Source: Octopus vulgaris (lineage: Eukaryota). From it: a stretch of 64,000 bases of DNA. The notes under the pieces are model-generated. The model searched no databases and was not told the origin of the DNA. It worked only from the letters and a program-made list of their open reading frames with translations. The position numbers and the translations under genes are program-made. Each line of letters begins with the position of its first letter. The stretch's first letter is position 1. The stretch covers positions 6,758,001 through 6,822,000 of the forward strand of contig OX597816.1 of NCBI GenBank assembly GCA_951406725.2. The letters run 5' to 3'. Below are positions 1-50,114 of this stretch, one piece after another.

Positions 1-549
1 TCTTTGACTGCTTTGTTTACAGAGACGACCTCGTTAACTTTTCATTTTCAGTGCTGCCTCTTAATTCTATTAATAAAAATTTGTAGGGATTCTAGAATTA
101 ATACAGGGTTTCTGTGATTTTAGTATTTAATTCAAGTCCTACTTTAGAACTATCCCACAACATGATTTGGAATTTTTGCTGGGGTTTTCTTTTTGCTTTT
201 TGTTGTTGTTGTTTTTTTGTTTTTTTATTATATGCTTTTTGCTTGGGGTTTTTTTGGTGCGTTTCTTTCGTTTTTATTTTGGTTGTTTGTTTTTTCAATT
301 TCATGAAGAAAATAGTTCGACTTTAAAATATTCCAAAATATTCCTTATCTCTGATACAGGACATTGTTGTGGCTATTGTTTTTGTTGTTGTTGTTGTTGT
401 TGTTGTTGCTGTTGTTGTTGCTGATGGTTGTGGAAGTAAGGGTGATGGTGGCGGTGGTGATACAGTTTTAGATTAAGTGAAATTGCAGATTCAGCCAAGA
501 ATTGTATATGTATGAGTATATATATATATATATGTGTGTATGTGTGTAC

Positions 550-586
<37 letters not shown>

Positions 587-615
587 CTTATATATATACA
601 CATACATATATATAT

Positions 616-672
<57 letters not shown>

Positions 673-915
673 CACGAGTACATATATATATATATATACA
701 CATACATATAGGTAGATTGATATACACACCTATGCATTTGTACATATACACATATATGTCTGCATACATAGATACACACACATATATGCACCCATACGTA
801 TATGCATACATACATGCATATCAGCAAAATAGTTTATATGTGTGTGTGTGTGCGTGAGTGTGTATGTGCATGAGTTCGTGTGTGTGTGTGTCTGTGTGTG
901 TGTCTCTGTGTGTGT

Positions 916-956
<41 letters not shown>

Positions 957-1533
957 TGTGTGTGTGTGTCCGATTTTGCCGCAAACATTGGAATTCTGTA
1001 TACAGAGTGCCAAAATGAGTCTGTTTTATTGGTTTTGATGTTTTTGGTGGGGTTTTTTTACGTTTATTTTATTTTTGTCTCTTGTGATGATGAATGGTGA
1101 TTCTGGTGGGGAGCATAATTGGTGTTGACAGATTAAAAAAAAAAAAAAAGAGAGAAAAAGAGAAAAAAAAACAGAAATGAAGCAACTGAATCGAAAGTTA
1201 GCCGGTTCAATTCCATAATGGAATTTTGCCAAAACGCCGAAATGCAATTCGGAAATAAGTTCCAATGACAGTTCTCAACCATTTCTTTTGGAATGGTACT
1301 ACAGATGTGTTTATTGTTGTTTTTGTTTTTTATTTTGTTGGTTTGTTAGTAGTTATTATGTTGTTCTTTCGTTTTGATTTTGGTTTTGTTTTGTTTTTTT
1401 TTCTTTGGTTTTTTGCTTGTTTTTTTTCTCTCTCTTTTTTTCCTTCTTATTCTTCGATTGTTGCTTGTGTTCCAACCCTGAAAGCGGAATCGGACTGTTA
1501 ATTTGCAATGATGTCATCTTAGATTGAAGAGTC

Positions 1534-1577
1534 TCAATGGAGTCTACCACTCGACTGAGAGGTCATGAATGGGTACC
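1534..1577 (-). CDS. Candidate terminal coding exon of an unidentified minus-strand gene, followed by a long A/U-rich, microsatellite-containing putative 3' UTR toward position 1
   Basis: Minus-strand acceptor tattgttattgtttttgtgatAG|GGTACCC (AG at 1579-1578). Reads (R)YPFMTSQSSGRLH* (stop ends 1534) or (T)VPIHDLSVEW* (stop ends 1544); both are phase-compatible with the 12934-13018 exon. Frame unresolved. Confidence 0.5.
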
Positions 1578-1892
1578 CTATCACAAAAACAATAACAATA
1601 CTACTATATAAGTAGACACTTAACTCTATTGAAGAATGGGGAATGAAGTCATATGACCGGAAAAAGCCGAGGAATGCATTAACGCCCACCCCGTCACCTT
1701 CATTGATTGTGGGTACACTTTTATCCAAACCTATTATCGTAGATTTCCAAACCTATTATCGTAGAATTATCGCAAATTTCATGATAAGCTAGCAATAAGG
1801 CAAACAGCGGAACAGGATCAAATCCAGGTTAAGCTATTTAGCTATTTCTAATGTACCCACTCTCCATATCTGCAAATTTTAGCCTGTAGTCA

Positions 1893-1961
1893 GTCCCCCT
1901 GACGATGGGGAATAGATTTTGACAATTTAACTTATGTTCACCATGTTACATACATCGGGAC
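1893..1961 (+). ncRNA. Decayed hammerhead relic
   Basis: GUCCC(C)-CUGACGA-UGG...CCA-(GAAA lost)-...UC-GGGAC. Helix I is intact but the GAAA box is mutated. Confidence 0.3.
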
Positions 1962-2139
1962 CAACAGCCCTCGTATTTTCAATGTCTCGGAGAAATATAG
2001 AATTGGTCAGGTGTGTTGATGAACAATTACCAACCATGGAAGAGAAATCTTAAAATCATATCAGCTGAATTGAGGAGTAGAGTACCCCTTAGTTAAGATA
2101 CTTCACTCTCAACAACCCAGTCAATGCAAATGTAGACGA

Positions 2140-2485
2140 CAAAACAGTGTTTCTGGTTGCCCGGTCCTGGCTAAAAAGGAATATATTCCCTGACATGACA
2201 GAGTTGGGACCTACATACACTGGAATCTATGCCAACACTATGGAATAGCAACAGAAAAAAGATGGTATAGGTACACACCAGAAAAGGTCACAGAAAATAA
2301 GAAAGCAACCATACTGTGGGATATGCCCACAGATAGAGAAATTAAGGCCAATAGACCGGATATAGATGTCAGGGATCACCAAGAAAAAAAATGTTTTTTA
2401 ATCGATGTATCAATACCAACAGATGACAATGTTTCTCTAAAAGAGACGGAGACACTTTCAAAATACAAAGACCTGGAAATACTAA
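2140..2485 (+). mobile_element. Non-LTR retrotransposon fragment, R4/Dong-like (zinc-knuckle/RLE region)
   Basis: Translates SGCPVLAKKEYI.*HDRVGTYIHWNLC...ILWDMPTDREIKANRPDI.VRD..EKKCFLIDVSIPTDDNVSLKETE.LSKYKDLEI, a restriction-like endonuclease PD..D motif. Confidence 0.85.
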
Positions 2486-2793
2486 TGAAACACTCGTGTG
2501 TTTCATTAGTTTGCTCTCAACCACATATATAGTATAATGATATGTTGAAAAAAGATTGGGTCCAGAAGGTGAAGTTGTTTCCCTTCCATAAACACAAACA
2601 ATACAGCAATGATCCAATTACATATTCCATTGGACATCGATGAGGAGTGACTCAAACCTGAGTCACACCTAAAGAGATGAGGCGTTCATACGGCGTCATT
2701 GATTTATATATATATCTCTACTTCCCTATTCCTATCTTGGAAGGGAAAAATGATCGGACAGTCGATACGAAACTGACTGAAACATAATTATTA

Positions 2794-3186
2794 CTAGTAG
2801 TATCGCCCGGCGTTGCTCGGGTTTGTTTCGACCCTTTAGAATTGGAATTTTTGAAAAGTAAAAATTTTGCATTATGTAGCTTGTTATTCTCTTTAAGTGA
2901 ACATTTTTCTGGTTGAAATACACCGAGAAATGGCGACACAGCAGTCAAAATATCGTAAAAAATACGGATTTTCAGAGAAAAAAAAAGCACCTTTTTGATG
3001 TAAATAATTTTTGGTGTTAACATGGTCCGATTTGAATTTTTTCTTCTACGGAATAAAGAGCAAGCCTTTTTTCTATCATACTCTCAATTTTGGTCAACTT
3101 GCACCGCAGGGTCTCGGAGGAGATAGTGTTAGTTGAAGGCTACCAAACCTGCCACACACAGACAACTTCAGCTTTATATATATATA
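2794..3186 (-). mobile_element. Non-autonomous Helitron, copy 1
   Basis: Minus-strand 3' end CTAG|T preceded by hairpin CCCGAGCAACGCCGGG; 5' end ...TATATAAAGCTG merges into (TA)n. Highly similar to 51249-51640. Confidence 0.8.
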
Positions 3187-3812
3187 TTATTCAGTAGTTT
3201 TACCAAGCGCAGCTCTGTGTGCCTTGGGTATGTGCTGCGGTTTTTGTAATGCTCTTACGGTCACTGTATTGAAAGTGTTTTCTGTAGGATGTGTGCAGTG
3301 TCCAGTAGTGCTATTTTCTGCCTGTTATATATATTTGTTAATCCTGGTGTTTTTAGTCATGCATTTGTCTGAATATTTTTTTATCATACCTAATGCGCCC
3401 ACTATGATAGGAATTCTTTCTGTTTTTAGATTCCACATTCGAGTTAACTCTATTTCCAGGTCTTTGTATTTTGAGAGTTTCTCCGTCTCTTTTAGAGAGA
3501 CATTGCCATCTGTTGGTATCGATTAGAAAGCATTTTTTTCTTGGTGTCTTATGTTTCTTTGTGCAAGATATTATCAAGCTCCAGGATCCCAAGGTACTTG
3601 TACCCATCATCATCCGGGTCTCCTATTCGCTCTCCGTTTGGCAGTTATATCCCCTTATAATCTGTTCTTTTCCCCCGCTTCAAAGTGAGCACCGTACACT
3701 TCGAGATCCCGAATTCCATTCCTATATCCTTGCTGTACATATGCACAGTTTCAACCAGCCTCTCCATTTCAGGCTCTGTTTTTGCGAACAGTTTCAAATC
3801 ATCCACAAAAAG
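3187..3812 (-). mobile_element. R4/Dong-like LINE relic: RT piece joined to the RLE C-terminus and 3' UTR
   Basis: FVDDLKLFAK...DIGMEFGISKC...YKYLGILE, then KKCFLID...KLSKYKDLEIELTRMWNLK...PIIVGALG...QKIALL.TAHIL. Confidence 0.85.
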
Positions 3813-3879
3813 GAAAATCATTTTCGTATATCATTATCGTTCTGGGGCGATAAATGAAGGAGATCTAATGTACTAACAT

Positions 3880-5004
3880 TTCCAATCGCGATCCGTCTGC
3901 GACAACCAACACCTCAGGCATTGCAGCGTAGAGTTTTCTTCCAGGACCTCTTTCCGAATATATTTCCAATTAGCTTTATGAAAGCTCAGGCTGGAAAGCA
4001 GACGGACGCTTCTAGTAGACTGCATGTCCACACTTCCCCGCGAACCATACATTGTTAGGAGTCAGAAAAAATTGTCGGTGTCACCATAACATCTTGGATG
4101 AGTGTCGCGCATTTTGTGAAGCAAAGGTCTAGAACATTTTTACTCCTTGTTGGGTGGCGCACTATTTGCTCCTTAAATACCATGTTTGTAAGGTCAGACA
4201 GAGACTCTACTCGCCCCTGTTTATGCAGTGACATACCTGGAGGAGACGGCCCCAGGCCATTCGACATTAGAGAAGTTGAATTCTTCCACAAGAAGAACGG
4301 AAGGCTGTCATTTAGGTTGGTTGATATTTTTCCATCTTTTTGAGGCTCTGTTCGAATGAATCCCCATGATTTGAAGCATCTGGGCGATATGTGGTACATA
4401 TTACCATTTGGATCTGTTTAATGTGAATTACCAGAGTGCCACAAACTGACTTTGAGTGTGGAATCTTCCCGGGTTTACATAACAGGTCCACCATGAGTTC
4501 TTTCTCTCCTATCAGTTCGAAATAATAAAATATTTCGGTATTTATACTTCGGCATCTGCTACGACAGTGGTCAGATGTCTTTCTGCTAGTACCATGCATA
4601 TTACTTGATTACCTAGAATAAATCTTTCAAGTATGGGGTTTTGTGCTGGTGTGGTGTCACAAGGTTCCTGGTATTCAGCAGGGACAATGCTATGGAATGT
4701 CAGTGGTGGCCGCTCGTCTGACATTTGTGGAACTTACCACACCACCATTGATACATGCCTTCATTCTGTCATGGAATTTTTGAGCGATTTTGTTTTTTCG
4801 GTTACGGCCAACCATGGCATGCAATGTCTGTCTGAAGCTTTTTAAACTGTGGCAAGGCCCTGCACAGAGCAACCCCAGTTTCTAGAGAACGTATGCTTTT
4901 GTTAAAAAAGAACTCGTCTATATCCTTAGATGCAAACAAACGACCCGCAAGTAATACAGTGTTCCTTCTCACAGCTCGTAGAGAGATGTCTAAACAAAGT
5001 GTAG

Positions 5005-5005
<1 letters not shown>
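3880..5005 (-). mobile_element. Decayed LINE (CR1/L2-group-like) AP-endonuclease region
   Basis: Frameshifted pieces VICTTYRP, EQIVRHPTRSKNVLDLCFT...VTPTIFSD and LSFHKANWKYIR. Confidence 0.75.
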
Positions 5006-5064
<59 letters not shown>

Positions 5065-5394
5065 ATGTTTGTTCCTTCTCGAACCACACCTGGCTCATAA
5101 GGGCCGGTTTCCAGGTTTCCTTGGCATATAGGTTCCCCACCTGGACGGGACGCCGGTCTATCTCAGGTAAGCTGCAAGATGCAGGAGGAAAGAGTGAGAG
5201 AAAGTTGTGGCGAAAGAGTCAGCAGAAGTTCGCCATTACCTTCTGCCGGAGCCGCGTGGAGCTTAGGTGTTTCGCTCATAAACACACACATCGCCCGGTC
5301 TGAGATTCGAACCCGCGATCTCTCGACCGCGAGTCCGCTGCTCTAACCACTAGGCCATGTGCCTCCACTGTGTACATACATACATTCACACACA

Positions 5395-5444
<50 letters not shown>

Positions 5445-5458
5445 AATATATATATATA

Positions 5459-5496
<38 letters not shown>

Positions 5497-5598
5497 TCGG
5501 GGTGAGTACTTGATAATTATAAGCACCTGTGTATACCGTTTGGTGGTGTAGGTGGTGGAGTAAATTGATCAAAATAAAAACATGATGCGAAGGATTCA

Positions 5599-5676
5599 GC
5601 GGTACATATGTTTCGGGCCTTTATTAGACAGATTTATAACAATGCATAATGTATGTCTGTGGCCTTCTTCAGCCGC
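5599..5676 (-). ncRNA. Mirror copy of the same minimal hammerhead in the other arm of the palindrome
   Basis: Exact reverse complement of 5817-5894. Confidence 0.8.
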
Positions 5677-5816
5677 GCACAACAGCTTCCACAAGGACAT
5701 GTGTTACATCAGAAATTCTTGGTTGGGGATGCAAATCCTCCCATTCGAATGGGAGGATTTGCATCCCCAACCAAGAATTTCTGATGTAACACATGTCCTT
5801 GTGGAAGCTGTTGTGC

Positions 5817-5894
5817 GCGGCTGAAGAAGGCCACAGACATACATTATGCATTGTTATAAATCTGTCTAATAAAGGCCCGAAACATATGTACCGC
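5817..5894 (+). ncRNA. Minimal type I hammerhead ribozyme (Penelope-like element type)
   Basis: GCGG-CUGAAGA-A-GGCC...GGCC-C-GAAA-CAUAUG-UA-CCGC. Helix I GCGG/CCGC, palindromic helix III ACAUAUGU, predicted cleavage after 5890. Confidence 0.8.
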
Positions 5895-5948
5895 TGAATC
5901 CTTCGCATCATGTTTTTATTTTGATCAATTTATATATATATATATATA

Positions 5949-6093
5949 TATATAAGAATTTTTTTTGCGTAATAAGATAAAAAAACCAAGGCTGTATAGA
6001 TATTAGAGCATTCTATCTATTCTATCTATAAATGCTCTAATATCTATACAGCCTTGTTTTTCTTTTATCTCATTACACAAAACAGTCTTATAT
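5949..6093. repeat. Imperfect inverted repeat
   Basis: Core arms caaggctgtatagatattagagcatt / aatgctctaatatctatacagccttg with degenerate extensions. Confidence 0.85.
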
Positions 6094-6402
6094 ACACACG
6101 CTGACATAGAACCAACGTAGAACCCTTTATTCGCAATATTCCTGAATCTGGAACTTAACTATGGTCTGTCTATAGCACTTGTTCAGCATTACCTGACACC
6201 TTTGGGTCTCAATGACACCATTATCTCTTTTATATATATATATATATATATATGTTTAAGTAGTTGAATGAATTATTCTAGTATGGATAATTCGGTTAAC
6301 CGATACCCGGGTAGTAAATTTACGTCAGAAAGCACGGTTGAAGCTACATGCCAAAGGCAGAAATCATGTGCTTTCGTGTGGAATTTTGTGTGTTTTTTTT
6401 AC

Positions 6403-6492
6403 TATAGATAAATGAAAGAATGGAGTCGAACGACGATTTAACAAAATATTTTGTTAAATCGTCGTTCGACTCCATTCTTTCATTTATCTATA
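6403..6492. repeat. Perfect 90-bp palindrome
   Basis: tatagataaatgaaagaatggagtcgaacgacgatttaacaaaat followed by its reverse complement; centre between 6447 and 6448. Confidence 0.95.
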
Positions 6493-6720
6493 TTATAGAT
6501 ATATATATATAATAAATAAATAAAACATATGCATATATACATACATATATGTACGTACCTACCTCTACATGTATATATACATGCATATATGGGTACAGGA
6601 CACCAAAAGAAAACCGTCTAACACAATGAGAAACGAAAACATAAACACAAAACCAAGGAAATGGACATTTTTCTTAAACAACGAAAATATAGAGTACAGG
6701 ACATACAAAACAAGGAAAAG

Positions 6721-6783
6721 TCCCCTTCTTCAGTCGCCTTTGTTTCATTTACTCCACGTTTCGAAGGTTAAGGCGATACATGA
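6721..6783 (-). ncRNA. Candidate hammerhead ribozyme with non-canonical (C-B-A) strand order
   Basis: Minus strand: U-CAUG-UA-UCGCCUU-aa-CCUU-C-GAAA-CGUG-G-...-AAGGCGA-CUGAAGA-A-GGGG. Perfect 7-bp helix I and 5-6-bp helix III abut the core in register; GUA cleavage triplet. Confidence 0.55.
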
Positions 6784-6969
6784 CTTTAATGAAACAATCC
6801 TTCCCGCGAAAATCAAATTAAATAAAATTTGAGATCTTTTTGCGGAGGGGTAAAAATGGTAACATAAACAGGACAGTAACGACAGTACAAAATATAAACA
6901 GTAAAAGACAGGACAAGGAGAATAACAGTAACACAAACAAGAAAGGCTGTTAAGCCGAACGAGATAAAA

Positions 6970-7019
6970 TTTCGTTTTACTGGAATATATATATATATAT
7001 ATATTCCAGTAAAACGAAA
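6970..7019. repeat. Short palindrome centred on (AT)n
   Basis: tttcgttttactgga-(AT)n-tccagtaaaacgaaa. Confidence 0.9.
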
Positions 7020-7121
7020 AACGAGATTTGAACTCAGGCAATCTACCAAAGCAGATGTTTGTTTCGATGTTTCTAGATTTCTTTTATTTTCGGCTAATAT
7101 TTTCTATTTGTTCATCACGCT

Positions 7122-7313
7122 GATAATAATGACGACGACGACGACGACGATGATGATGATGATGATGACGATGACGATGATGATGATGATGATGATGATG
7201 ATGACGATGACGATGATGATGATGATGATGATGACGACGATGATGATGATGATGATGATGATGACGACGATGATGATGATGATGATGACGACGATGATGA
7301 TGATGATGATGAC

Positions 7314-7388
<75 letters not shown>

Positions 7389-7580
7389 AATGATGAGGAT
7401 GATGATGATGATGATGATGATAATAATGATGATGATGATGATGATGATGATGATTATGATGATGATGATGATGATGACGACGATGATGATGATGATGATG
7501 ATGATGACGACGATGATGATGATGATGATGACGACGATGATGATGATGATGATGACGACGATGATGATGATGATGATGAC

Positions 7581-7621
<41 letters not shown>

Positions 7622-7650
7622 CGACGATGATGATGATGATGATAACAACA

Positions 7651-7682
<32 letters not shown>

Positions 7683-7707
7683 AATAATAATAATGATGAT
7701 GATGATG

Positions 7708-7745
<38 letters not shown>

Positions 7746-7752
7746 AATAATA

Positions 7753-7812
<60 letters not shown>

Positions 7813-7892
7813 ATGATGATGATGATGATGATGACGACGATGATAATGATGATGATGATGATAACGACGATGATGATGATGATGATGACGAC

Positions 7893-7988
<96 letters not shown>

Positions 7989-7995
7989 AATGATG

Positions 7996-8026
<31 letters not shown>

Positions 8027-8097
8027 CGATGATGATGATGATGATGATGATTATGATGATGATGATGATGACGATGATGATGATGATGATGATGATT

Positions 8098-8167
<70 letters not shown>

Positions 8168-8226
8168 CGACGATGATGATGATGATGATGATGACGACGA
8201 TGATGAAGATGATGATGATGATGATG

Positions 8227-8269
<43 letters not shown>

Positions 8270-8316
8270 CGATGATGATGATGATGATGATGATTATGAT
8301 GATGATGATGATGACA

Positions 8317-8350
<34 letters not shown>

Positions 8351-8405
8351 CGATGATGACGACGACGATGATGATGATGATGATGATGATGACGACGACG
8401 ACGAC

Positions 8406-8451
<46 letters not shown>

Positions 8452-8473
8452 ATGATGATGGAGAAGATGATGA
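7122..8473. repeat. About 1.35-kb interrupted (ATG)n microsatellite
   Basis: ATG units with ACG/ATA/AGG/ATT variants; followed by (TTA)n at 8524-8712 and (CT)n at 8905-9007. Confidence 0.98.
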
Positions 8474-8640
8474 AGGCAGTAACGAAAGTTGATCAAAATG
8501 ATTCGTATATTTGTTTCTGCCACTTATTATTATTATCTCTATTATTATTATTATTATCTCTATTATTATTGTTATTATCATTATTATTATTATTATTATT
8601 ATTACTTTTTTTTTTCTTCTTTCAAATTTGCTTCCATTTC

Positions 8641-8686
<46 letters not shown>

Positions 8687-8899
8687 CATCATTATTATTA
8701 TCATCATCATTATTTATCAGTCAATTTTATTTCCAGATAATATATTATATATCCAATGATATACTGATATTATACAACCAATAATACAATAAGTTAATAT
8801 TATATCTGCTCTAATATAATAGATAAGGTTTTAGTGTATCAAGTTTTCATCTCTTTTTCTAACAGAAAAACGGTAGATTTAACGAAAGAGTGCATTGCT

Positions 8900-9000
<101 letters not shown>

Positions 9001-9606
9001 CTCTCTCAGTCTGTCAGCACATCACTCATACTAACTGGGCCACAGGTGGCTCATATCTTTTGAAGAGATACAATCTAAGCTTCTACAAACGATAAATGGT
9101 GACAAACGCAGTTAAAATGGAATTTGGTTGCTAATGCAGAATCACTGTTGCTATCTGTCGCTTAAATATAAGAGTTTTTGACAATGGAAAACGGGTTCCT
9201 ACTTAACGGAGAACGTGATGTCATTGTGATTATTAATTTAAGTTTACTTCTTTTTTCTATTTAATTGGGGGAAATAAAACGTTTCGAGTTTATACAAGAC
9301 GTATGATGGACGAACAGACAGAGAGTTAGGCACACAGATATCCTTATATAAACAGACGCACATAATACAATCGACGGAATGACTTTCGGCAAGTATTTTG
9401 TACGTAATTATATTTGCATATATTTTTCAGAGCCACGCAGATACAAACTCAAGCTGAATTTTTCCAGGTTTCTGGTTTGTATAAATTTTTTCCGTGTTTA
9501 TAGATTTTTTTTTTTTAATGTGAAGGTACGTGGCTTAGTGGTAAGAGGCAATGTGCTGGCAGGATTGTTAGCATGCTGGGGAAAATGCTTAGCAATATTT
9601 TAAAAA

Positions 9607-10185
9607 GGTGGCGAGCTGGCAGAAACGTTAGCACGCCGGGCGAAATGCTTAGCGGTATTTCGTCTGCCGTTACGTTCTGAGTTCAAATTTCGCCGAGGTC
9701 TACTTTGCCTTTCATCCTTTCGGGGTCGATAAATTAAGTACCAGTTATGCACTGGGGTCGATGTGATCGACTTAATCCGTTTGTCTGTCCTTGTTTGTCC
9801 CCTCTCTGTTTAGCCCCTTGTGGGTAGTAAAGAAATAGGTATTTCGTCTGTTTTTACATTCTGAGTTCAAATTCAGCCGAGGTCGACTTTGCCCTTCATC
9901 CTTTCGGAGTCGATTAAATAAGTACCAGTTACGCACTGGGGTCGATATAATCGACTTAATCCGTTTGTCTGTCCTTGTTTGTCCTCTCTGTATTTAGCCC
10001 CTTGTGGGTAGTAAAGAAAAGGTATCTCGTCAGTCTTTACGATCTGAGTTCAAATTCTGCCGAGATTAACTTTGCCATTCATCCTTTCGAGGTCGATAAA
10101 TTAAGTACCAGTTGCGTACTGGGGTCGATCTATTTGATTGACCCCCTCCCAAAAAATTTCGGGTCTTGTGCCTAGAGTAGAAAAG
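9607..10185 (+). mobile_element. SINE family C, tandem three-unit array
   Basis: Head ggtggcgagctggcagaaacgttagcacgccgggcg. Body gttcaaatt...gcctttcatcctttcggggtcgataaattaagtaccag occurs three times. Confidence 0.85.
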
Positions 10186-10187
10186 TA

Positions 10188-10738
10188 GAAAGTTCGTGCT
10201 GATTTTTAAAGGAAAGAAAAAGGTCAATAAATACTTGCCATTACATTTTTAATCAACCAAATATGAACCATTTTGTTGCACAATTCGTCTCCATCTTTCC
10301 TTTAACTTGAAAATACCCTCTTCCCAGAATTGAGGTGGTTTCATGGCAAAGAATTCATCAAGGTATCTTTTTACGTCATCCAAGGCATTGAAATTTTTAC
10401 TATTAAGACTATTCTGCAGAAACCTGAATAAGTGGAAATCCGAAGGAGCAATATCTGGTGAATATGGAGAGCCGGGTAACACATCCCAGCCGAGCTGCAG
10501 CAATTTTTGTCTGGTTCCCAAAGTATCAAATGCCGAAAATGAAATTTCTTATCTTCCATTTTAAAGGGTTACAGAATTAACACAGATTATAGGAACATAA
10601 ACCTTCTTCAACGATAGCTTAAACTGTGCTCGAAATGGAGGTGTAGTCAAATCCTATTTTATGGACTCACCTATGTTCTAAAATAAGTTGAAAGGTAAGC
10701 TACTATAAATCGGCACGAAATTTCCAGACAACCCAATA
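10188..10738 (-). mobile_element. Internally deleted mariner element
   Basis: N-terminus MEDKKFHFRH directly joined to C-terminus TRQKLLQLGWDVLP.SPYSPDIAPSDFHLFRFLQN...GSYLVD*. TIR ttgggttgtctggaaatttcgtgccgattt plus TA at the right end; left TIR truncated. Confidence 0.9.
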
Positions 10739-10928
10739 TAAACACAGTTGGAAATGATTTTGTACTTCAGAACATAAAGATGGATGAAATACCGCTAAGC
10801 ATTAAATCCGGCATGCTTACGATTCTGCCAGCTCATCACCATGTATATATTTTACATATGGCCACTCTATATATACATATATATATAGGGGAGATCATTT
10901 TTTTAACCAGGACAAACAGAAAAATACG

Positions 10929-11290
10929 TGGCACCCCGTCGGTTACTGATCCAATTAACGGAACAGCCTGCTCGTGAAATTAACGTGCAAGTGGCTGAGC
11001 ACTCCACAGACACGTGTACCCTTAACGTAGTTCTCGGGGAGATTCAGCGAGACACAGAATGTGACAAGGCTGGCCCTTTGAAATACAGGTACAACAGAAA
11101 CAGGGAGAAAGAGTGAGAGAAAGTTGTGGTGAAAGAGTAGAGCAGGGTTCGCCACCATCAATTGCCGGAGCATCGTGGACCTTTAGATGTTTTCGTTCAA
11201 TAAACACTCACAACGCCCAGTCTGGGAATCGAAATTGCGATGCTACGACCGCGAGTCCGCTGCCCTAACCACTGGGCCATTACGCTTCCA
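10929..11290 (-). mobile_element. tRNA-derived SINE family A
   Basis: Reverse complement of 12080-12460; A box tggcccagtggttagg and B box ggtttcgattcc-like. Confidence 0.9.
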
Positions 11291-11548
11291 CAAAAATAAG
11301 CACATCTTCAATAATGCAAAGAATGAACTGAAGACGTGAGAGGAGGAATGAAACCTGTCTTTGATCCGTTTCATTCTCTTCATTCCTCCCTCCTTCGTCA
11401 AATATTTTGTATTAATTACATTAATGGATTCATTCCGGTTTGAAAACTTGTTGATTTGTGTTTTGTCCGGTCGCAATCTCTTCCGAACAAAACAGCAATG
11501 TGTCCACCTGACAGTTCGAAAAAATTACTGTTTTCCTTCTCCTTTCTT

Positions 11549-11596
<48 letters not shown>

Positions 11597-11643
11597 CTCT
11601 CTCTCTCTCTTTCTTTCTCTCTCTCCCTCTCTCTCTCTTTATT

Positions 11644-11699
<56 letters not shown>

Positions 11700-11744
11700 T
11701 CTTTACTCTCTCTCTCTCTTTCTTTCTCTCTCTCTTTATTTCTT

Positions 11745-11806
<62 letters not shown>

Positions 11807-12079
11807 TTCTACCCCCATTTTTATAGGGGTTTTTTTTTTCAGCAAGACGCATCAGAAACACCAGCGAAAACAAAAAGTCTCTTTGATCTGCTTTATTTCC
11901 TCCTCCGCTAATTATTTCGTATTAATTGCATTAATTGATTAATTAAGGTTTTAAAGACTTTTTAATTTGCAGCTTTTCTCCTTACCTAATCTCATTGAAG
12001 CAAAATAAGCCCAGGTACTCCTCTGATTCTAACACTGTCTGCACCAAACCTCTACATCATACGTATATACTTCCATATA

Positions 12080-12460
12080 GGCGCAATGGCCCAGTTGTTA
12101 GGGCAGCGGACTCGCGGTCATAGGATCGCGGTTTCGATTCCCAGACCGGGCGTTGTGAGTGTTTGTTGAGCGAAAACACCTAAAGCTCCACGCAGCTCCG
12201 GCAGGGGATGGTGGTGATCCCTGCTGTACTCTTTCACCACAACTTTCTCTCACTCTTACTTCCTGCTTCTGTTGTACCTGTATTTCAAAGGGCCGGCCTT
12301 GTCACTCTCTGTGTCACGCTGAATATCCCCGAGAACTACGTTAAGGGTAGACGTGTCTGTGGAGTGCTCAGCCACTTACACATTAATTTCACGAGCAGGC
12401 TGTTCCGTTGATCGGATCAACTGGAACCCTCGTCGTCGTAACCGACGGAGTGCTTCCACA
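12080..12460 (+). mobile_element. tRNA-derived SINE family A with TSD
   Basis: Pol III A/B boxes; flanking direct repeat atacttccatata (12067-12079 and 12460-12472). Confidence 0.92.
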
Positions 12461-12506
12461 TACTTCCATATATACTGTACTCATTATTTCTCTCTTCCCC
12501 CTCAAA

Positions 12507-12737
12507 GCGGCGAGCTGGCAGAATCGTTAGCACGTCAGGCGAAATGCGTAGCCGTATTTCGACTGTCGTTACGTTCTGAGTTCAAATTTCGTCTAGGTCG
12601 ACTTTACCTTTCATCCTTTCGGGGTCGATAAATTAAGTACCAGTTACGCACTGGGGTCGATGTAATCGACTTAATCCCTTTGTCTGTCCTTGTTTGTCCC
12701 CCTCTGTGTTTAGCCCCTTGTGGGTAGTAAAGAAATA
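12507..12737 (+). mobile_element. SINE family C with TSD
   Basis: Flanking direct repeat tatttctctcttccccctc. Confidence 0.9.
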
Positions 12738-12933
12738 TATTTCTCTCTTCCCCCTCTTTCTCTCTCTCTCTCTCCATTTGGCTTCATACTCTGCGAGTGT
12801 GTATGTGTGTGTGTGTGTGTGTCAACAAACATGTGTATATATGTGAGTGCAGTTGTATGTGCATCCATACGTGTATGTGTATCCTTATATACATATATAC
12901 ACGTTGTCTTCCTTTATATACGCATGAACTAAC

Positions 12934-13018
12934 GTGACCTGTGCATGGCCGAGCCGTCGGCGAATAAACCGACAGCCCCACCAAAGCGTGCATGTTGAGG
13001 CAGGCGAGTTTGGACATC
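12934..13018 (-). CDS. Candidate 85-nt internal exon
   Basis: Strong polypyrimidine acceptor ttttcttttcctttttatccggcAG and donor CAC|GTTAGT. GC-rich unique sequence in repeat background. Open in all three frames (e.g. DVQTRLPQHARFGGAVGLFADGSAMHRS or CPNSPASTCTLWWGCRFIRRRLGHAQV). Confidence 0.65.
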
Positions 13019-13421
13019 CTGCCGGATAAAAAGGAAAAGAAAACTAAATTTACCAAAGGACTGATGAAAGTCAACAGCTGCCGGACGAGCTGCACAAATG
13101 AGTTGTTTCTAGTGATCAAATGTTCGTGCCGCGCGTTAGCTCGGTCCCTGCATCAAATCGACTTTGCCTGAACAGGGACACAAGTGTACCACGGGTCGAG
13201 TATCGAAGTGACGGCAGAAGAATGTGAGACGAAGTGTTTTGCTCGAGAACACAACGCAGCACCCGGTCTAAGAATTGAAACCACGATCGCTAGATTGAGG
13301 GTTCAACACCCTAACTACTAAGCTATGCGCCCTCACTAATATATGTGAGTGCGCGCGTCTGTGTATGTATTTGTGTGTGTGCGCGTCTGTGTGTTTGTGT
13401 GTGTGCATGTATTTGTGTATA

Positions 13422-13717
13422 TAGTGGTTAGGGCATTCGGTTCACGATCGTAAGGTCGTGAGTTCGATTCCCGGCGACGCGTTGAGTCCTTGAGCAAGGC
13501 ACTTTATTTCCCATTGCTCCAGTCCACTCAGCTGGCAAAAATGAGTTGTACATGTATTTCAAAGGGCCAGCCTTGTCACGCTGGATCCCCCTGAGAACTA
13601 CGTTAGGGGTACGCGTGTCTGTGGATTGCTCAGCCACTTGCACGTTAATTTCATGAGCAGGCTGTTCCCTTGATCGTATCAGCTGGGACCCTCGTCGTCG
13701 TAACCGACGGAGTACTC
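13422..13717 (+). mobile_element. SINE family A variant (different 5' body)
   Basis: tagtggttaggg...gagttcgattcc head; shares the 3' body ending ccgacggagt. Related heads at about 13180-13335(-), 18763-18988(-), 45600-45740(+) and 60585-60720(+). Confidence 0.8.
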
Positions 13718-14515
13718 CTAACATGTATATGTAAACAAACATCCAAGAAGAAAGCTCTGACATGAAACCTGCGCTGTTTGTGGCTTCTGGTTGTCTCATC
13801 ATTTAGGTTTTTGCCAGATTAATGGAGTCAAACGTGAAGAGAATTCGGGTCGCACAAACGTTTATCACTACAATATTTTGCGTTGGTCCTTATTGTTTGC
13901 AAATTCATTAGATTTTTTCCTAAATTTCTGTGGGAAAGTGTAAGTAGAGACGAGTGCAATGGTAACGGATTGGAGATTTGGCAGTAAACCTGCACTCGGC
14001 AGCAAAATTTACGAGGAACATTTGAGAAATTTAATTAACAATGAGACATTTTACAAATCAAATTTAGAATGAAATGTTCAAATTTTATAAATTTAGACAA
14101 GAGACCATTTCATTCTTGAAGATGTATCACTGTTGCTTCCATGTTGGAAGCCCCTCGTATTTTCGAAACTACTTTGAAATGAAAGTCATGGAAACCCACA
14201 AATTCAGTCCCATTGTAAGTGTTGATGACGTTGATTTCGTGGAAGGACATGGACTCAACATGGCGAGCTAACAAAACATTTTTATACTTCTCAGACGGTG
14301 ATATGATAGACGTCGTGATCTTGGACACTATCTGGTTCCAATGATAGGATAGGAACCATTTCTGCTAGGTTGACCTTTATTCTACAGACTCACCAATCAA
14401 TATTCCTGTTGTTTAATGAAGTACTGAGCTTCTCTAAGAAGGCAACGGTTCCAGAACTCTTAAAGTACATTTGTAACTAACGTTTCTCGAAGAATATGGA
14501 TGACACATTAATACT

Positions 14516-14776
14516 TATTTCTTTATTACCCACAAGGGGCTAAACACAGAGGGGACAAACAAGGGCAGACATAGGTATTAAGTCGATTACATCGACCCCA
14601 GTGCGTAACTGGTACTTATTTAAGGCAGCGAGCTAGCAGAAACTTAATTTATCGACCTCGAAAGGATGAAAGGCAAAGTCGACCTCGACGGAATTTGAAC
14701 TCACAACGTAACGACAGACGAAATACCGCTAAGCATTTCGCCCGGCGTGCTAACGTTTCTGCCAGCTCGCCGCCTT
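14516..14776 (-). mobile_element. SINE family C with TSD
   Basis: Flanking direct repeat tgacacattaatact. Confidence 0.9.
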
Positions 14777-15274
14777 CGTGACACATTAATACTGAGATCG
14801 AATCCAGTGAATCACCTCTTCATATACCAAATCTCTTTTGTCAACACTAGAATGATGAAAAGCCAAGCCAAGCCGATCCCTACACTCTTCGAAGCCAGAT
14901 CGTAAAGAGATGGAACTAAACACTACAAGACATTTCCTACGGTACTCATTGTGATGTCAAACGATCTTTGTTTACTGCAAAAAATATTAGGTTGCATTGG
15001 CCGCAAATGCACCATTTTTGAAGATTTCATTATCATTCGATTTGGCTACGGAATTTCAATTCAGGACATTGATTAACATAATTAAACAATGACAAACATA
15101 CAGACAAGTATTTTACCATTTCCACAATTCGACTGCATCCTTTAGTGAATGTGTGTGTGTGTGTGTGCGTGTGTGTGTGTGTGTGTATGAGTGTGTGTGT
15201 GTGTGTGTGTCTGTGTGTGTGTGTGTGTGCGTGTGTGTGTATGTGTGTGTGTATGTGTGTGTGTGTGTGTGTGT

Positions 15275-15357
<83 letters not shown>

Positions 15358-15485
15358 GATGTTACAGTTTCATTATCCAAGAAAAGTGCTGTGTAGAATG
15401 GGTAGAAATGCTTCTTGTCCATGGTATGCAGATTCCAATAGGAGTTCATATTTTGTTATTACGGGTGGATAGTATAAGGGTGTAT

Positions 15486-15518
<33 letters not shown>

Positions 15519-15600
15519 AATGGCGGTGCCCCAGCATGGCCACAGCTCATAAGCTGAAACTGGAAAAATCAAAATCAAAATCAAAATCAAATATATATAC

Positions 15601-15977
15601 GGCACTCCGTCGGTTACGACGACGAGGGTTCCAGTTGATCCAATCAACGGAACAGCCTGCTCGTTAAATTAACTTGCAAGTGGCTGAGCACTCCATAGAC
15701 ACGTGTACCCTTAACGTAGTTGTCAGGGAGATTCAGGGTGACACACAGTGTGACAAGGCTGGCCCTTTGAAATACAGGTACAACAGAAACAGGGAGAAAG
15801 AGCGAGAGAAAGTTGTGGTGAAAGAGTACAACAGGGTTCGCGACCTCAACCCCTGCCAGAACATCGTGGAGCTTTTAGGTGTTTTCGCTCAACAAACACT
15901 CACAACGCCCGGTCTGAGAGTCGAAAGCGCGATCCTACGATCGCGAGTCTGCTGCTCTAACCACTGGGCCACTGCGC

Positions 15978-16074
<97 letters not shown>

Positions 16075-16362
16075 CGTGATCACCGTGACCGACCAGGCTA
16101 TCAGATGTTGCTACACATTGCTGGTCACAATGCGCTTCGCATTGTATTAGCCTTCAAATGACGCCACCCCGCTGGCTCAGTGAGCAGGCCAACAGAAGGA
16201 ACAGCGAGAGAAAATTGTGGTGAAAGAGTACAGTAGGGACCGCCACCAACCCCTGCCGGGCCTCGTGGATCTTTTAGGTGTTTTCGTTCAATAAACACTC
16301 ACAACGCCCGGTCTGGGAATCGAAACCGCGATCCTACGACCGCGAGTCCGCTGCCCTAGCCA
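15601..16362 (-). mobile_element. Two adjacent family A SINEs (15601-15977; 16070-16362 with an alternative 3' tail)
   Basis: Same head and body as 12080. The alternative tail tcaccgtgatcaccgtgaccgaccaggctatcag recurs as fragments at 39400-39522 and 39628-39733; another tail variant lies at 5085-5368. Confidence 0.85.
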
Positions 16363-16612
16363 ATATATATATATAAAACACACACACACACACACATACA
16401 CACAGAAAGTGATTCTTTATATTACTGCAAGATTAAAATGTCTAAAAGAGAAATGTAATTTATTTCTTACATCGATGGTGCAGTGTTAACGTGTCCGTTG
16501 GTGTAGCATAAATTAATGTTGTTGTGTGTGTTAGTCCGCTATAGAATATTATTGGACTTCGTGTTATACACATTGATGTTATTAAAGATATAAATGTTGT
16601 ATATGGATAAGT

Positions 16613-17122
16613 CCCATTAACTGCCAGATGATTTAATTCCTATTTTTTTGGCTTTGCCAGGTGTCTTAGGAGTTCAAATAATATATAGTATTTAAAATTT
16701 TCTTCATATGTGAATCATTTTGGAAATTATGATAAATTTCTCTAAAAGTCTCAAATGGGGATCGCTGAAAAAAAGCATATTTATCTTTTTCTATTCAATT
16801 GCAATACTAAACATTTTAGTCTCTTTTGAAACTATAGTATCAATTGAGAATGTGTATGAAGTATAAATGAATGATACAGATGGGAAATGCAAAAAACAAA
16901 AACAAAACGTTTTCAAAACAGTCAATATTTTTGTAGTTCAAAAACTACGATTTATGATATAAAATGTCGTCTAGAATTAACCAGAGCTGATAATGACAAA
17001 CTTTAACGACTAAATATTATTAAACACACCTCTGCAAATGCCATGTACATAAGCAATTCACTTTAAATATAACGAACACCCGGCAGTGAGACTGTCAAAT
17101 GGGGCCCATGGCAGGCAATGGG
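16613..17122. mobile_element. Possible piggyBac-type non-autonomous element
   Basis: Right end ggcaggcaatggg|TTAA; left end cccattaactgcc is an imperfect inverted match and the left TTAA is degraded. Confidence 0.4.
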
Positions 17123-17570
17123 TTAATATAGTGGTTTTGCTATTGAATGTATGTGTGTTGTATATGTCATGTGTTGTGCAATAGGATGGATATGTGCTTT
17201 TTGTTTTGATAGATATCGATAATGACATCATGTCGACATAACTGAGTTATAATTGTGCAAAAATGTTCAGCAATTAAACAATTGAATTAACAAATCTAGC
17301 ATCCATCCCTGAGGACAATTGCTTTATTAAATAAACACCGAATAAATAGGATTAGGTGAGTGAGGGTAATACAATGCTGCAAATTAATGCCTTAAATTGA
17401 AAGCCACCGTAATATCGGATATACTATGAAGGAAAAATATTAGTTGATGAAAAATATTTATGTTTATATCAGCAAGGGAGACAACTGCAAGCATGTTTCC
17501 TTCTTTGGAAACTCTTCAGAGAAGTGCAGAAGTATTAACGATTTGAATCATTAAGAAAGTACAGAAATTT

Positions 17571-17890
17571 ATAATTACCTCCGCCTTAGCGAAGGCGGAG
17601 GTATTGTTTTCAGTTGTGTTTGTTTCTTTCTTTGTCCGTGGACAAAATATTTCAAGAACTGCTGGATGGATTTCGATGAAACTTTCAGGAATGTTTGGCC
17701 TTGTGACTGGCACGAACTGATTAGATTTTGGGATCGATCCCGTACTGGACAAGGATTCTGGATTATATTTCCGGTTTTTTGTTTTCACTTAATTTTTGAG
17801 AGCAGTCGGGTTTATTTCAGAGATTCTCATTTTAAAAATCATCGTTGCTGTTGCCATGGCGAAGGTTTGCGCTGTCTGAGTGCTCTTATT
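17571..17890 (+). mobile_element. Helentron-associated (HINE/DINE-1-like) non-autonomous element
   Basis: 5' subterminal IR cctccgcc(tt)...(aa)ggcggagg, internal gttt repeat, 3' partner ggcgaagg plus small hairpin gcgctgtctgagtgc and T-rich end. Confidence 0.6.
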
Positions 17891-18344
17891 ATTAATGTTT
17901 AATTAAGCATTTTCGAGCTATTCTTTTCAAATTCGGAGTAAAAAGAAAAATATTAAAAGACACTAAAATCCATATATTATTCTAGAAATGGTTTATTTAT
18001 TTGCTTTTTAAAACATTCACCAAAACCTTTGCATCAAAATTGTATTTCCTTTTGTTGAAGACGAGACTAAAAAGAGAGACTTCTGATTGGTCGGCGAAAT
18101 ATTACAGTTGTTAGTTTTGTGAAATACAACGCAATCAAGTACAGCGTTCCTATTTATATGCCAGCAGAGATAATGTAACGAGTCTAAACAATGGCAGCTG
18201 AAATTGAGATTACTATCAGAGAGATAATATAGTTTTAGACTCTTTTAAACTACATTATCGTCTGCTTTGTCAATGTGCGTGTGGGTAGGCGTGCTTAGAG
18301 ATTGTTAAATAAATTTTGTGTGTGTGTGTGTGTGTGCGCGCGTT

Positions 18345-18748
18345 GGCGCAGTCGTAGGTGTGTGTTAAGAAGCTTGCTTCTCAAACACATGGTTGTAGGT
18401 TCAGTCCCACTCTGTGGCACCTTGGGTAGGTGTTTTCTGCTATAGTCTCGGGCCTAATAAAGCCTTGTGAGTGGAATTGGTAGACGGAAACTGAAAGAAG
18501 CCTGTTGTATATATGTGTGTGTGTGTGCGCGTGTTTGTCTCTGTACTTGTGTTTGTCCTCCACCCACCGCTTGATAACCGACGTTGGTGTGTTTACATTC
18601 CCGCAACTTAGCGGTCCGATAAAAGAGACCCATACAATAACTACCGCTCTTGAAAAAAATATGTACTGTGATCGATTCGTTCGACTAAAAATTCTTCGAG
18701 GCAATGCTGCAGCATGGCCGCAGTTGAATGGTTTAACCAAGTAAAAGA
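18345..18748 (+). mobile_element. tRNA-derived SINE family B (internal TA/TG microsatellite), diverged copy
   Basis: Same layout as 44270-44694. Further copies or fragments at about 20048-20190(+), 21430-21640(-), 22855-23255(-), 24063-24190(+), 25660-25860(+), 30570-30940(-) and 46130-46340(-). Confidence 0.85.
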
Positions 18749-19002
18749 TGGACAGACATATCCACGGACACGCGTACCCTTAACGTAGAGAGATTCAGCG
18801 AGACACAGAATGTGACAAGGCTGGACCCCATTGAATTACGGGTACAGCACATCTTTTCCGATCTGAATGGAAAGGAGCAATGTGAAGTAAAGTGTCTTGC
18901 TCAAGGACATAACGCGTCGCCGAGTATCAAACTCGCGACCTTACAACCACGAACCGAACGCCCTACCCACGAAGCCATGCACCCTCACTCGTATCAATAT
19001 AC

Positions 19003-19077
19003 CAGCGGCTCCCAACCTGGCCCCTGGTGGTCCTCAATGGTAGTACTAGGTTTCCGTTAACTAAATTCAACATTTCA

Positions 19078-19146
<69 letters not shown>

Positions 19147-19301
19147 TTCTTTCTTTTTATTCTTTTACTTGTTTCATATATATATAATCGAGCAACTACC
19201 CGGGACTTATTCTTTGATACTATATCGGTCTCTTTTGCCGATATTATAAACACCAGCATACAAGCAATGCTATATATATATATATATATATATAGCCTGT
19301 C

Positions 19302-19340
<39 letters not shown>

Positions 19341-19387
19341 CATAATACATACATACATATATACATACATACATACATATATACATA

Positions 19388-19441
<54 letters not shown>

Positions 19442-19971
19442 ATATATATATATATATATATATAATTTCATATACATACATATAAATATATATATATATA
19501 TTTCGTTTTTGGATTTGGTTTGCAAGGTTCTTTATATGAGATCGTGTGTTGAAGAATATTCTGTTGTGTCTGGGGAGAGTCATTTTCTCTTTGTGCCTTA
19601 TAATGTAACACACGCACCGGTAAAATTTCCACTTATTTCTTATTTTTATTTTCCTAAAATTTTCGTTGCGTCTTGCAACCTTTTCAATAGTCTTGACTCT
19701 GTCCGTTATTTACACTGAGTTCCTTTTTGTTTGTTTGTGCGCATGTGTGTGGGTCAGTGTGTGGGTCAGTGTGTGTGTGTGTGTATGTGTGTGTGTGCCT
19801 ATATATGCATGCATGTACGTATGTATGTGTGTATGTATGTATGCATGTGTATGTATGCATATATGCGTGTGTGTGTGCATCTGTAATTATGTATCCTGTA
19901 TATTATGTGCTTGCATGTCTGTGTTTGTGTATTTTCTATGTATGTGTGTGTGTGAGCATGTGTTTGTGTGT

Positions 19972-20049
<78 letters not shown>

Positions 20050-50070: not shown

Positions 50071-50114
50071 CCACCTGATGAATGTCATTTGAAGACAGGA
50101 AACAATTGTAGTGG
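50071..50114 (+). ncRNA. Minimal type I hammerhead ribozyme
   Basis: CCAC-CUGAUGA-A-UGUC-auuugaa-GACA-G-GAAA-CAAUUG-UA-GUGG. Palindromic helix III ACAAUUGU, predicted cleavage after 50110. Confidence 0.8.

Follow-up and report, generated by a model that had tools for sequence, protein, structure and literature searches.

The window, the whole 64,000-nt stretch of Octopus vulgaris DNA that was analysed, contains on its minus strand, at 6499-6972, a copy of a non-coding Penelope-like element, family A, that lacks its 5' part and is flanked by (TA)n tracts. Its limits were established by blastn with the unit of another copy, L027, which shows 94% identity to the window across 479 nt. The sequence-only reading of this DNA had placed the element at 6590-7019 and made it end in a palindrome. 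This extent was wrong: the short palindrome around (TA)n at 6970-7019 marks the 5'-truncation junction and lies outside the element's own sequence, as other copies run on into unit sequence at that position. The Penelope-like context that was also proposed is borne out by 5' truncation, a partial tandem, an inverted 5' copy, a tail of ~40 nt and a (TA)n target, the anatomy of a non-autonomous Penelope-like element. In L027 the order is an inverted 5' piece, a partial tandem, the 810-nt unit, the ~40-nt tail and then (TA)n, and tandem units are 810 nt apart. The full unit (810 nt) is non-coding, with a longest stop-free frame of 107 codons.

The element region is a repeat. Homologous copies had been called for, and 4,226 candidates were found; the 40 that were scored are all full-length, with 92-97% identity. 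Two mutually exclusive exact patterns that include both conserved boxes of the motif described below matched 2,460 and 2,980 copies, against 0 for reversed controls, and the family A unit plus its related subfamilies amounts to at least 5,440 copies. A loose pattern (13,614 matches against 3,403 in the control) reveals several unrelated families with the same block order. The strict motif pattern is matched by only 21 of the 49 copies that reach far enough upstream.

Several features of other kinds were detected elsewhere in the window and in the genome. An inverted pair of a canonical type I hammerhead element, from a different family, occupies 5520-5935, with predicted cuts after 5890 (plus strand) and after 5603 (minus strand). 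Another canonical type I hammerhead is found at 50110 (plus strand) and has a relative in locus L341. Short perfect palindromes of the kind seen at 6970-7019, set between (TA)n tracts, recur at 5981-6062 and 6405-6490, and a long (GAT/GAC)n tract with chance snoRNA matches extends from 7130 to ~8500. The flanks of loci L001-L374 gave 43 type I descriptor matches, belonging to many families and often with a long loop II; the genome is very hammerhead-rich. A young Penelope-like element (PLE) with a C-terminal GIY-YIG domain (L375-L404) carries a minimal type-I-like hammerhead of the U3/A8 kind ~60 nt past its ORF in 27 of 30 loci. A Pfam reverse transcriptase (RT) profile search of the genome yielded 150 strong matches.

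Fold and pairings predict that the minus strand of the family A copy forms, at 6722-6850, a ribozyme of 129 nt with six helices. From its 5' end, the strand comprises the 5' strand of helix IV, CCCCU (6846-6850), which pairs with 6726-6722; hairpin V (6804-6845; -9.8 kcal/mol), which abuts helices IV and II; the 5' strand of helix II, GAAGG (6799-6803, with G10.1 at 6803), upstream of the cleavage block; and the 5' strand of helix VI (6788-6797), which pairs with 6749-6740 and joins the outer ends of helices I and II. The cleavage block (6770-6783) is assigned by sequence, covariation and the 5'-end pile-up described below, and is made of the helix III 5' strand UCAUGU (6783-6778), the A of the GUA triplet (6777) and the helix I 5' strand UCGCCUU (6776-6770). 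The helix II 3' strand CCUUC (6767-6763), the GAAA box (6762-6759) and the helix III 3' strand form the block at 6754-6767, read from the sequence and an 18-copy alignment. The 3' strand of helix VI follows (6740-6749, from duplex energies and fold), and then the helix I 3' strand AAGGCGA (6740-6734), the CUGAAGA box (6733-6727) and AGGGG (6726-6722), the 3' strand of helix IV; these last three are annotated together at 6722-6738 on sequence, covariation and the 18-copy alignment.

Part of this arrangement had been recognized in the sequence-only reading. Both conserved boxes, the GUA triplet and helices I and III are present as claimed, the non-circular, pseudoknotted strand order agrees with the block order on the minus strand (cleavage site, GAAA, CUGA), a short linker does join helices I and II, and the same predicted bond, between 6777 and 6776, is retained as the cut. 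The extent of 63 nt was too short, and the block described as helix I strand, CUGANGA and helix II strand in one unit is split; four elements had been missed, namely the upstream helix II strand and helices IV, V and VI. A 14-nt linker is indeed present between the blocks, but most of it is the 3' strand of helix VI (6740-6749).

The motif is beyond chance, because the final descriptor found a single match, that at 6722-6850, in 128 kb of window strands; a looser descriptor that allowed six block orders gave 2 matches in the SGC order (see below) across 10 block-shuffled windows. No Rfam ribozyme family was detected in positions 1-20000 of the window, in agreement with the earlier statement that standard models would miss the motif. 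It has the CUGANGA and GAAA boxes, the A15.1-U16.1 pair and the NUH triplet of hammerheads, with covarying helices I, II and III around the core, helix II being formed via the upstream strand. The U16.1-A15.1 pair is found in 39 of 39 copies, U at 16.1 having been required to locate the block, and the triplets GUA, GUC, GUU, AUU, AUA, AUC and CUC are found among the 17 divergent representatives described below. Its strand order sets it apart from types I, II and III, which are circularly permuted three-way junctions without core pseudoknots.

For the covariation analysis, 60 position-ordered copies were located with no condition on the 5' strands. The cleavage block is present in 39, and the remaining 21 are mostly truncated or decayed. 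Among the 39, Watson-Crick pairs account for 188 of 195 positions in helix I (119 ± 9 with shuffled partners) and for 110 of 117 in helix III (77.5 ± 5 with shuffled partners); related copies are not independent, and these shuffle figures are not probabilities. Double changes occur at 1.1, 1.2, 1.4, 1.5, 16.3, 16.4 and 16.5. Changes on both sides were also seen in 8 pairs of a 14-sequence alignment and in 12 of 30 pairs in 18 copies, whose covariation score was matched by 0 of 500 shuffles. The covariation test proposed for helices I and III hence reveals compensatory changes across subfamilies.

Helix II is a different case. The pairing originally drawn, GGGG with CCUU, was mis-paired, and shows no both-side change in the 14-sequence alignment, in which the CTTC side was fixed by the search pattern. 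The partner of CCUUC is the upstream GAAGG (6803-6799), and that of AGGGG is CCCCU (6850-6846). These assignments come from a comparison of 17 divergent representatives, 9 from the Octopus genome and 8 from metagenome loci, picked by hand from 57 distinct matches after viewing them; three of them are related subfamilies. The upstream helix II partner scored 15.3 against 9.3 for mismatched partners and helix IV, which is wrongly assigned in at least one representative (L264), 15.0 against 10.3, while the own-partner duplexes of helix VI had a mean of -11.4 kcal/mol against -4.3 for cross pairings; in each case none of 20,000 permutations reached the observed value. The downstream helix II partner scored 6.1 against 5.5 (p = 0.12). 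G10.1-C11.1 opens helix II in all 17 representatives, and a hairpin V lies between helices IV and II in most of them.

In the 18 copies of families A-C, GAAGG is invariant and fully paired in all 18, though it lies outside the search pattern; pairing in helix IV reaches 91%, and two of the four outer pairs of hairpin V have changed on both sides. Helices II and IV are invariant within these families, so their support comes from the between-family comparison. In the MAFFT alignment of the same copies, where gaps shift the register, pairing in helix VI is only 59%. The minimum-energy fold of the 129-nt strand contains helices IV, V, VI and III (-33.8 kcal/mol, z = -2.47; 4 of 200 shuffles fold as well), and helices I and II are pseudoknots on top of it. 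Folded alone, 6695-6790 gives a z of -0.09 because the upstream half is absent. CUGANGA and the helix II strand are 70 nt apart, in reversed order, and connected via helices IV and V; two additional helices are predicted to open the catalytic core between A9 and G10.1. Three other pairings were considered by eye. Two of them were dropped, a hairpin downstream of CUGAAGA and a helix that pairs the linker with the 3' flank; a kink-turn between helices III and VI can be drawn in some families but not in others, and no claim is made for it.

If the motif cuts, copies of the element might be expected to begin at the cut. A 21-mer located 103 nt downstream of the predicted cut was used as an anchor; the first 100 of its 755 places gave 99 anchors. 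Of these, 4 duplicates and 5 copies whose alignment failed next to the anchor were removed, which left 90 copies. Among copies at risk, 20 of 70 have their 5' end at 0 to +14, compared with 1 of 50 at -15 to -1 (Fisher p = 6.8e-5), and the strongest 5'-end step over 670 positions falls exactly at position 0, the predicted cut. Ends at 0 to +8 are found in 12 of the 90 copies. Ends are also enriched at +15 to +44, inside the structure (17 of 87). In a further set of 60 pattern-selected copies, which cannot show ends beyond +10, 12 ends lie at 0 to +12 and 3 at -13 to -1 (-5, -2 and -1); three more were mis-scored via (TA)n matches, and four loci overlap the first set.

The association of the motif with an open reading frame was examined in Naiads. 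A Naiad RT remnant of the Octopus genome led to full-length proteins with a GIY-YIG domain before the RT, and an alignment of 22 of 40 such proteins was used to fetch 96 Naiad-ORF loci of other organisms, located on metagenome and MAG contigs (80 retained out of 439, and 16 more). With a descriptor that allowed helix II from anywhere upstream, 15 of the 96 loci, or 13 distinct elements, have the motif downstream on the sense strand; the controls on the same loci (minus strands, ORFs and 20 shuffles each) had no match. The other 81 loci have no match; among loci with at least 500 nt downstream, 13 of 52 match and 39 do not. A scan for all six block orders detected no hammerhead of types I to III downstream of any of the 96 loci. 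The matches fall into 9 open forms, 5 contiguous forms of the CSG order and a single CSG with an insert (L199), and helix VI is present in the CSG forms too (5 of 5). In both terminal repeats of L199, 29 nt that form two hairpins separate A9 from G10.1 of the CSG. The L199 contig is binned as a bacterium, and the Naiad CSG found there is a possible intermediate to the opened form. Sixteen Naiad ORFs (L190-L205) come from contigs assigned to bacterial genomes; animal contamination is the most likely reason. In a quick tree of 93 of 98 rows (5 were too short), the matches are confined to two groups of 25 and 15 rows; the other 53 rows have none.

In the Octopus genome, 7 of 30 Naiad RT-remnant loci are followed by the motif downstream. 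A second set of 30 such loci gave 3 descriptor matches and 2 decayed cores, two of these five being common to the first set, and another Octopus family with the same ribozyme comes after Naiad RT remnants. A pattern derived from the published 3' end of an Octopus Naiad had 122 matches in the genome against 0 for the control. The published Naiad consensus file was inspected by eye at 60 of 62 CTGATGA, 30 of 43 CTGAAGA and 30 of 47 GAAAC-type places. At those places the open form is found in three Acropora, two Octopus and at least two further records, and the CSG form in five records of the nematode part; records without an adjacent header were named from file order.

Rfam gave 0 gathering-level matches in 20 Naiad loci, 3 of them motif-bearing, and no convincing match was found in Naiad 3' regions for the core variants U3/A8, G3/C8 and A3/U8. 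No Naiad was found in viral contigs. Two hemichordate Naiad 3' ends in the supplement of PMC8557442 share a different conserved motif without CUGANGA; a rough pattern for this motif had 0 matches in the 96 loci. Locus L078 was considered as a second Naiad-linked family and discarded: it is a separate insertion, and no other of 39 scored copies spans both parts.

Family A itself is no Naiad, as it lacks the ORF with N-terminal GIY-YIG, CxC, DKA and C-terminal RT, and it shares no DNA with Naiad-ORF elements, save where copies of the family A kind lie next to them. At 92-97% identity the family is young; the Naiad ORFs found in the Octopus genome are decayed. Family A resembles the Naiads described in Craig et al. 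2021 (PMC8557442) in (TA)n targets, 5' truncation, partial tandems, inverted 5' pieces and a 30-40-nt tail, and several consensus 3' ends of that paper bear the same motif by eye. According to the same source, Naiads lack canonical hammerheads, and 8 families are marked 'HHR_half_core'.

The order cleavage site, GAAA, CUGANGA is that of type SGC (Eckert 2023, PMC10085705), which was shown to cleave in vitro, as was the CSG order. As described there, these rearranged hammerheads come from assembled metatranscriptomes, plus one bacterial GCS candidate; a word search of the main text for octopus, mollusc or animal found none. Hence the CBA order, of which the sequence-only reading was aware of no description without excluding one, had been published. 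The motif shares with SGC and CSG ribozymes the same cyclic block order, the short linker between helices I and II, a clamp helix on the ends of stems I and II (here helix VI) and a pseudoknotted core, and five Naiad loci of this work have a plain CSG of the published type. It departs from type SGC, in which the helix II strand lies directly 3' of CUGANGA with one or two inserted bases at most; here the two are separated via helices IV and V. In PMC10085705, CUGANGA and the helix II strand are assumed to be inseparable, and the descriptors need CUGAUGA(U)G contiguous with stem II. Unlike the metatranscriptomic examples, the ribozymes described here sit in animal retroelements.

Non-LTR retrozymes (PMC4209133; bioRxiv 10.64898/2026.07.22.740005) are also made of non-coding tandem units with one hammerhead each, and are PLE-derived or PLE-moved. 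However, according to these sources, their hammerheads and those of canonical PLEs are of type I, often minimal and dimer-dependent, while family A, which does have tandem units, has a ribozyme with a full helix III and a rearranged split core. Among the core insertions listed in Perreault 2011 we found only ones of one or two bases, and the non-LTR retrozyme and PLE literature notes a one-base insert between positions 9 and 10.1 of PLE hammerheads and reports the U3/A8 core variant. In the literature searched, which did not extend to subscription journals and bioRxiv supplements, we found no hammerhead described as split between A9 and G10.1, no tested precedent for such a core, and no account of non-circular hammerheads in Naiads or other animal genomes. 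The block order was known; the split core and the animal-genome setting appear to be new. The split-core hammerhead appears to be a new form of a known ribozyme class, well supported by comparison and with predicted activity.

Alternative explanations must be weighed against this reading. The simplest is an ordinary type-SGC hammerhead of ~63 nt in which GGGG/CCUU, immediately after CUGAAGA, is helix II. Four pairs can be drawn, and published SGC ribozymes (PMC10085705) share the wiring and cleave. Yet that duplex reaches only -2.2 kcal/mol, compared with -4.6 for the upstream helix II, while helix IV, into which those G's would pair instead, reaches -7.4; the downstream partner, besides failing to exceed mismatched ones, scores 0-4 in 8 of 17 representatives, and GAAGG and CCCCU are almost invariant upstream. 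We consider this possibility very improbable, and the plain SGC assignment was dropped given that the upstream helix II and helix IV outdo mismatched partners. A strand-swapped dimer, or trans action between tandem units, has a precedent in the minimal PLE hammerheads reported to work as dimers (PMC4209133), and tandem units do exist, as in L027. However, six helices of at least 4-5 bp each can form inside one copy, helix IV closes the monomer, and four of the helices appear in the minimum-energy fold of the single strand. Nothing found requires the dimer that the sequence-only reading had offered as an alternative, and we give it scant probability.

A conserved structure that does not cut, such as a protein-binding or reverse-transcriptase pause element on which stalling produces the 5' ends, would account for the ends inside the structure, and those at +15 to +44 may well reflect stalling. 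The ends at 0 to +8 and the cliff at 0 can hardly do so: the 3' strand unwound last ends near +9. In addition, unrelated sequences retain both catalytic boxes, U16.1, G10.1-C11.1 and a base other than G at position 17. A structure of this kind seems improbable to us. Another possibility leaves the ribozyme as proposed and concerns the driver only: family A might be moved by another Penelope clade, for instance the young element with the C-terminal endonuclease mentioned above. That element has 21,894 candidates with 90-98% identity, (TA)n flanks and a ~40-nt tail, one family A copy adjoins it (L029), and Naiads are described in PMC8557442 as long inactive in cephalopods. Against this, its own motif is the minimal, type-I-like U3/A8 one, it shares no DNA with the family A unit, and the split design is tied to an ORF only for Naiads. 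We view such a driver as possible, albeit rather unlikely.

The reading that we favour, and hold to be highly probable on comparative grounds, is that a 5'-truncated, high-copy, non-coding Penelope-like element carries a 129-nt split-core hammerhead that likely cuts after GUA and likely sets the 5' end of the template, copied into (TA)n by a Penelope-type, probably Naiad, enzyme. Sequence comparison shows the strands in the order helix II 5' strand, cleavage block, GAAA block and CUGANGA; A9 leads into helix IV, hairpin V separates helix IV from helix II, and the distal ends of helices I and II are held together by helix VI. The design is equivalent to a CSG hammerhead that has acquired two hairpins between A9 and G10.1, a closed form seen in L199, and whose first hairpin has then been opened at its loop. 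The active-site chemistry of hammerheads is established, and the active site here would be that of an ordinary hammerhead core. Cutting of tandem or read-through transcripts would yield unit-length RNA, and reverse transcription that reached the 5' end of this RNA would give rise to insertions that start at the cut.

In a broader sense, we think it probable that this is a seventh natural wiring of the hammerhead, with the core opened between A9 and G10.1 and rebuilt via two helices on a non-circular permutation, active in vivo and present in thousands of copies, and that the series formed by plain CSG, CSG with two inserted hairpins and the opened form is the missing ribozyme of at least two Naiad lineages in several animal phyla. 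The rule that limits hammerheads to six block orders would then be broken by the split core, and RNA structural biology would gain a natural hammerhead core in separately transcribed pieces. Non-circular permutations move from viroid-like metatranscriptome RNAs to animal chromosomes, at high copy number, and the closed intermediate in L199 suggests an evolutionary route to the opened form. The apparent absence of hammerheads in Naiads receives a testable answer: they seemed to lack them because descriptors could not see the split and CSG forms. Lastly, the role of the ribozyme at the 5' end of a Penelope-type template has been called unclear (Craig et al., PMC8557442); the pile-up of 5' ends at the predicted cut ties ribozyme cleavage to that end.
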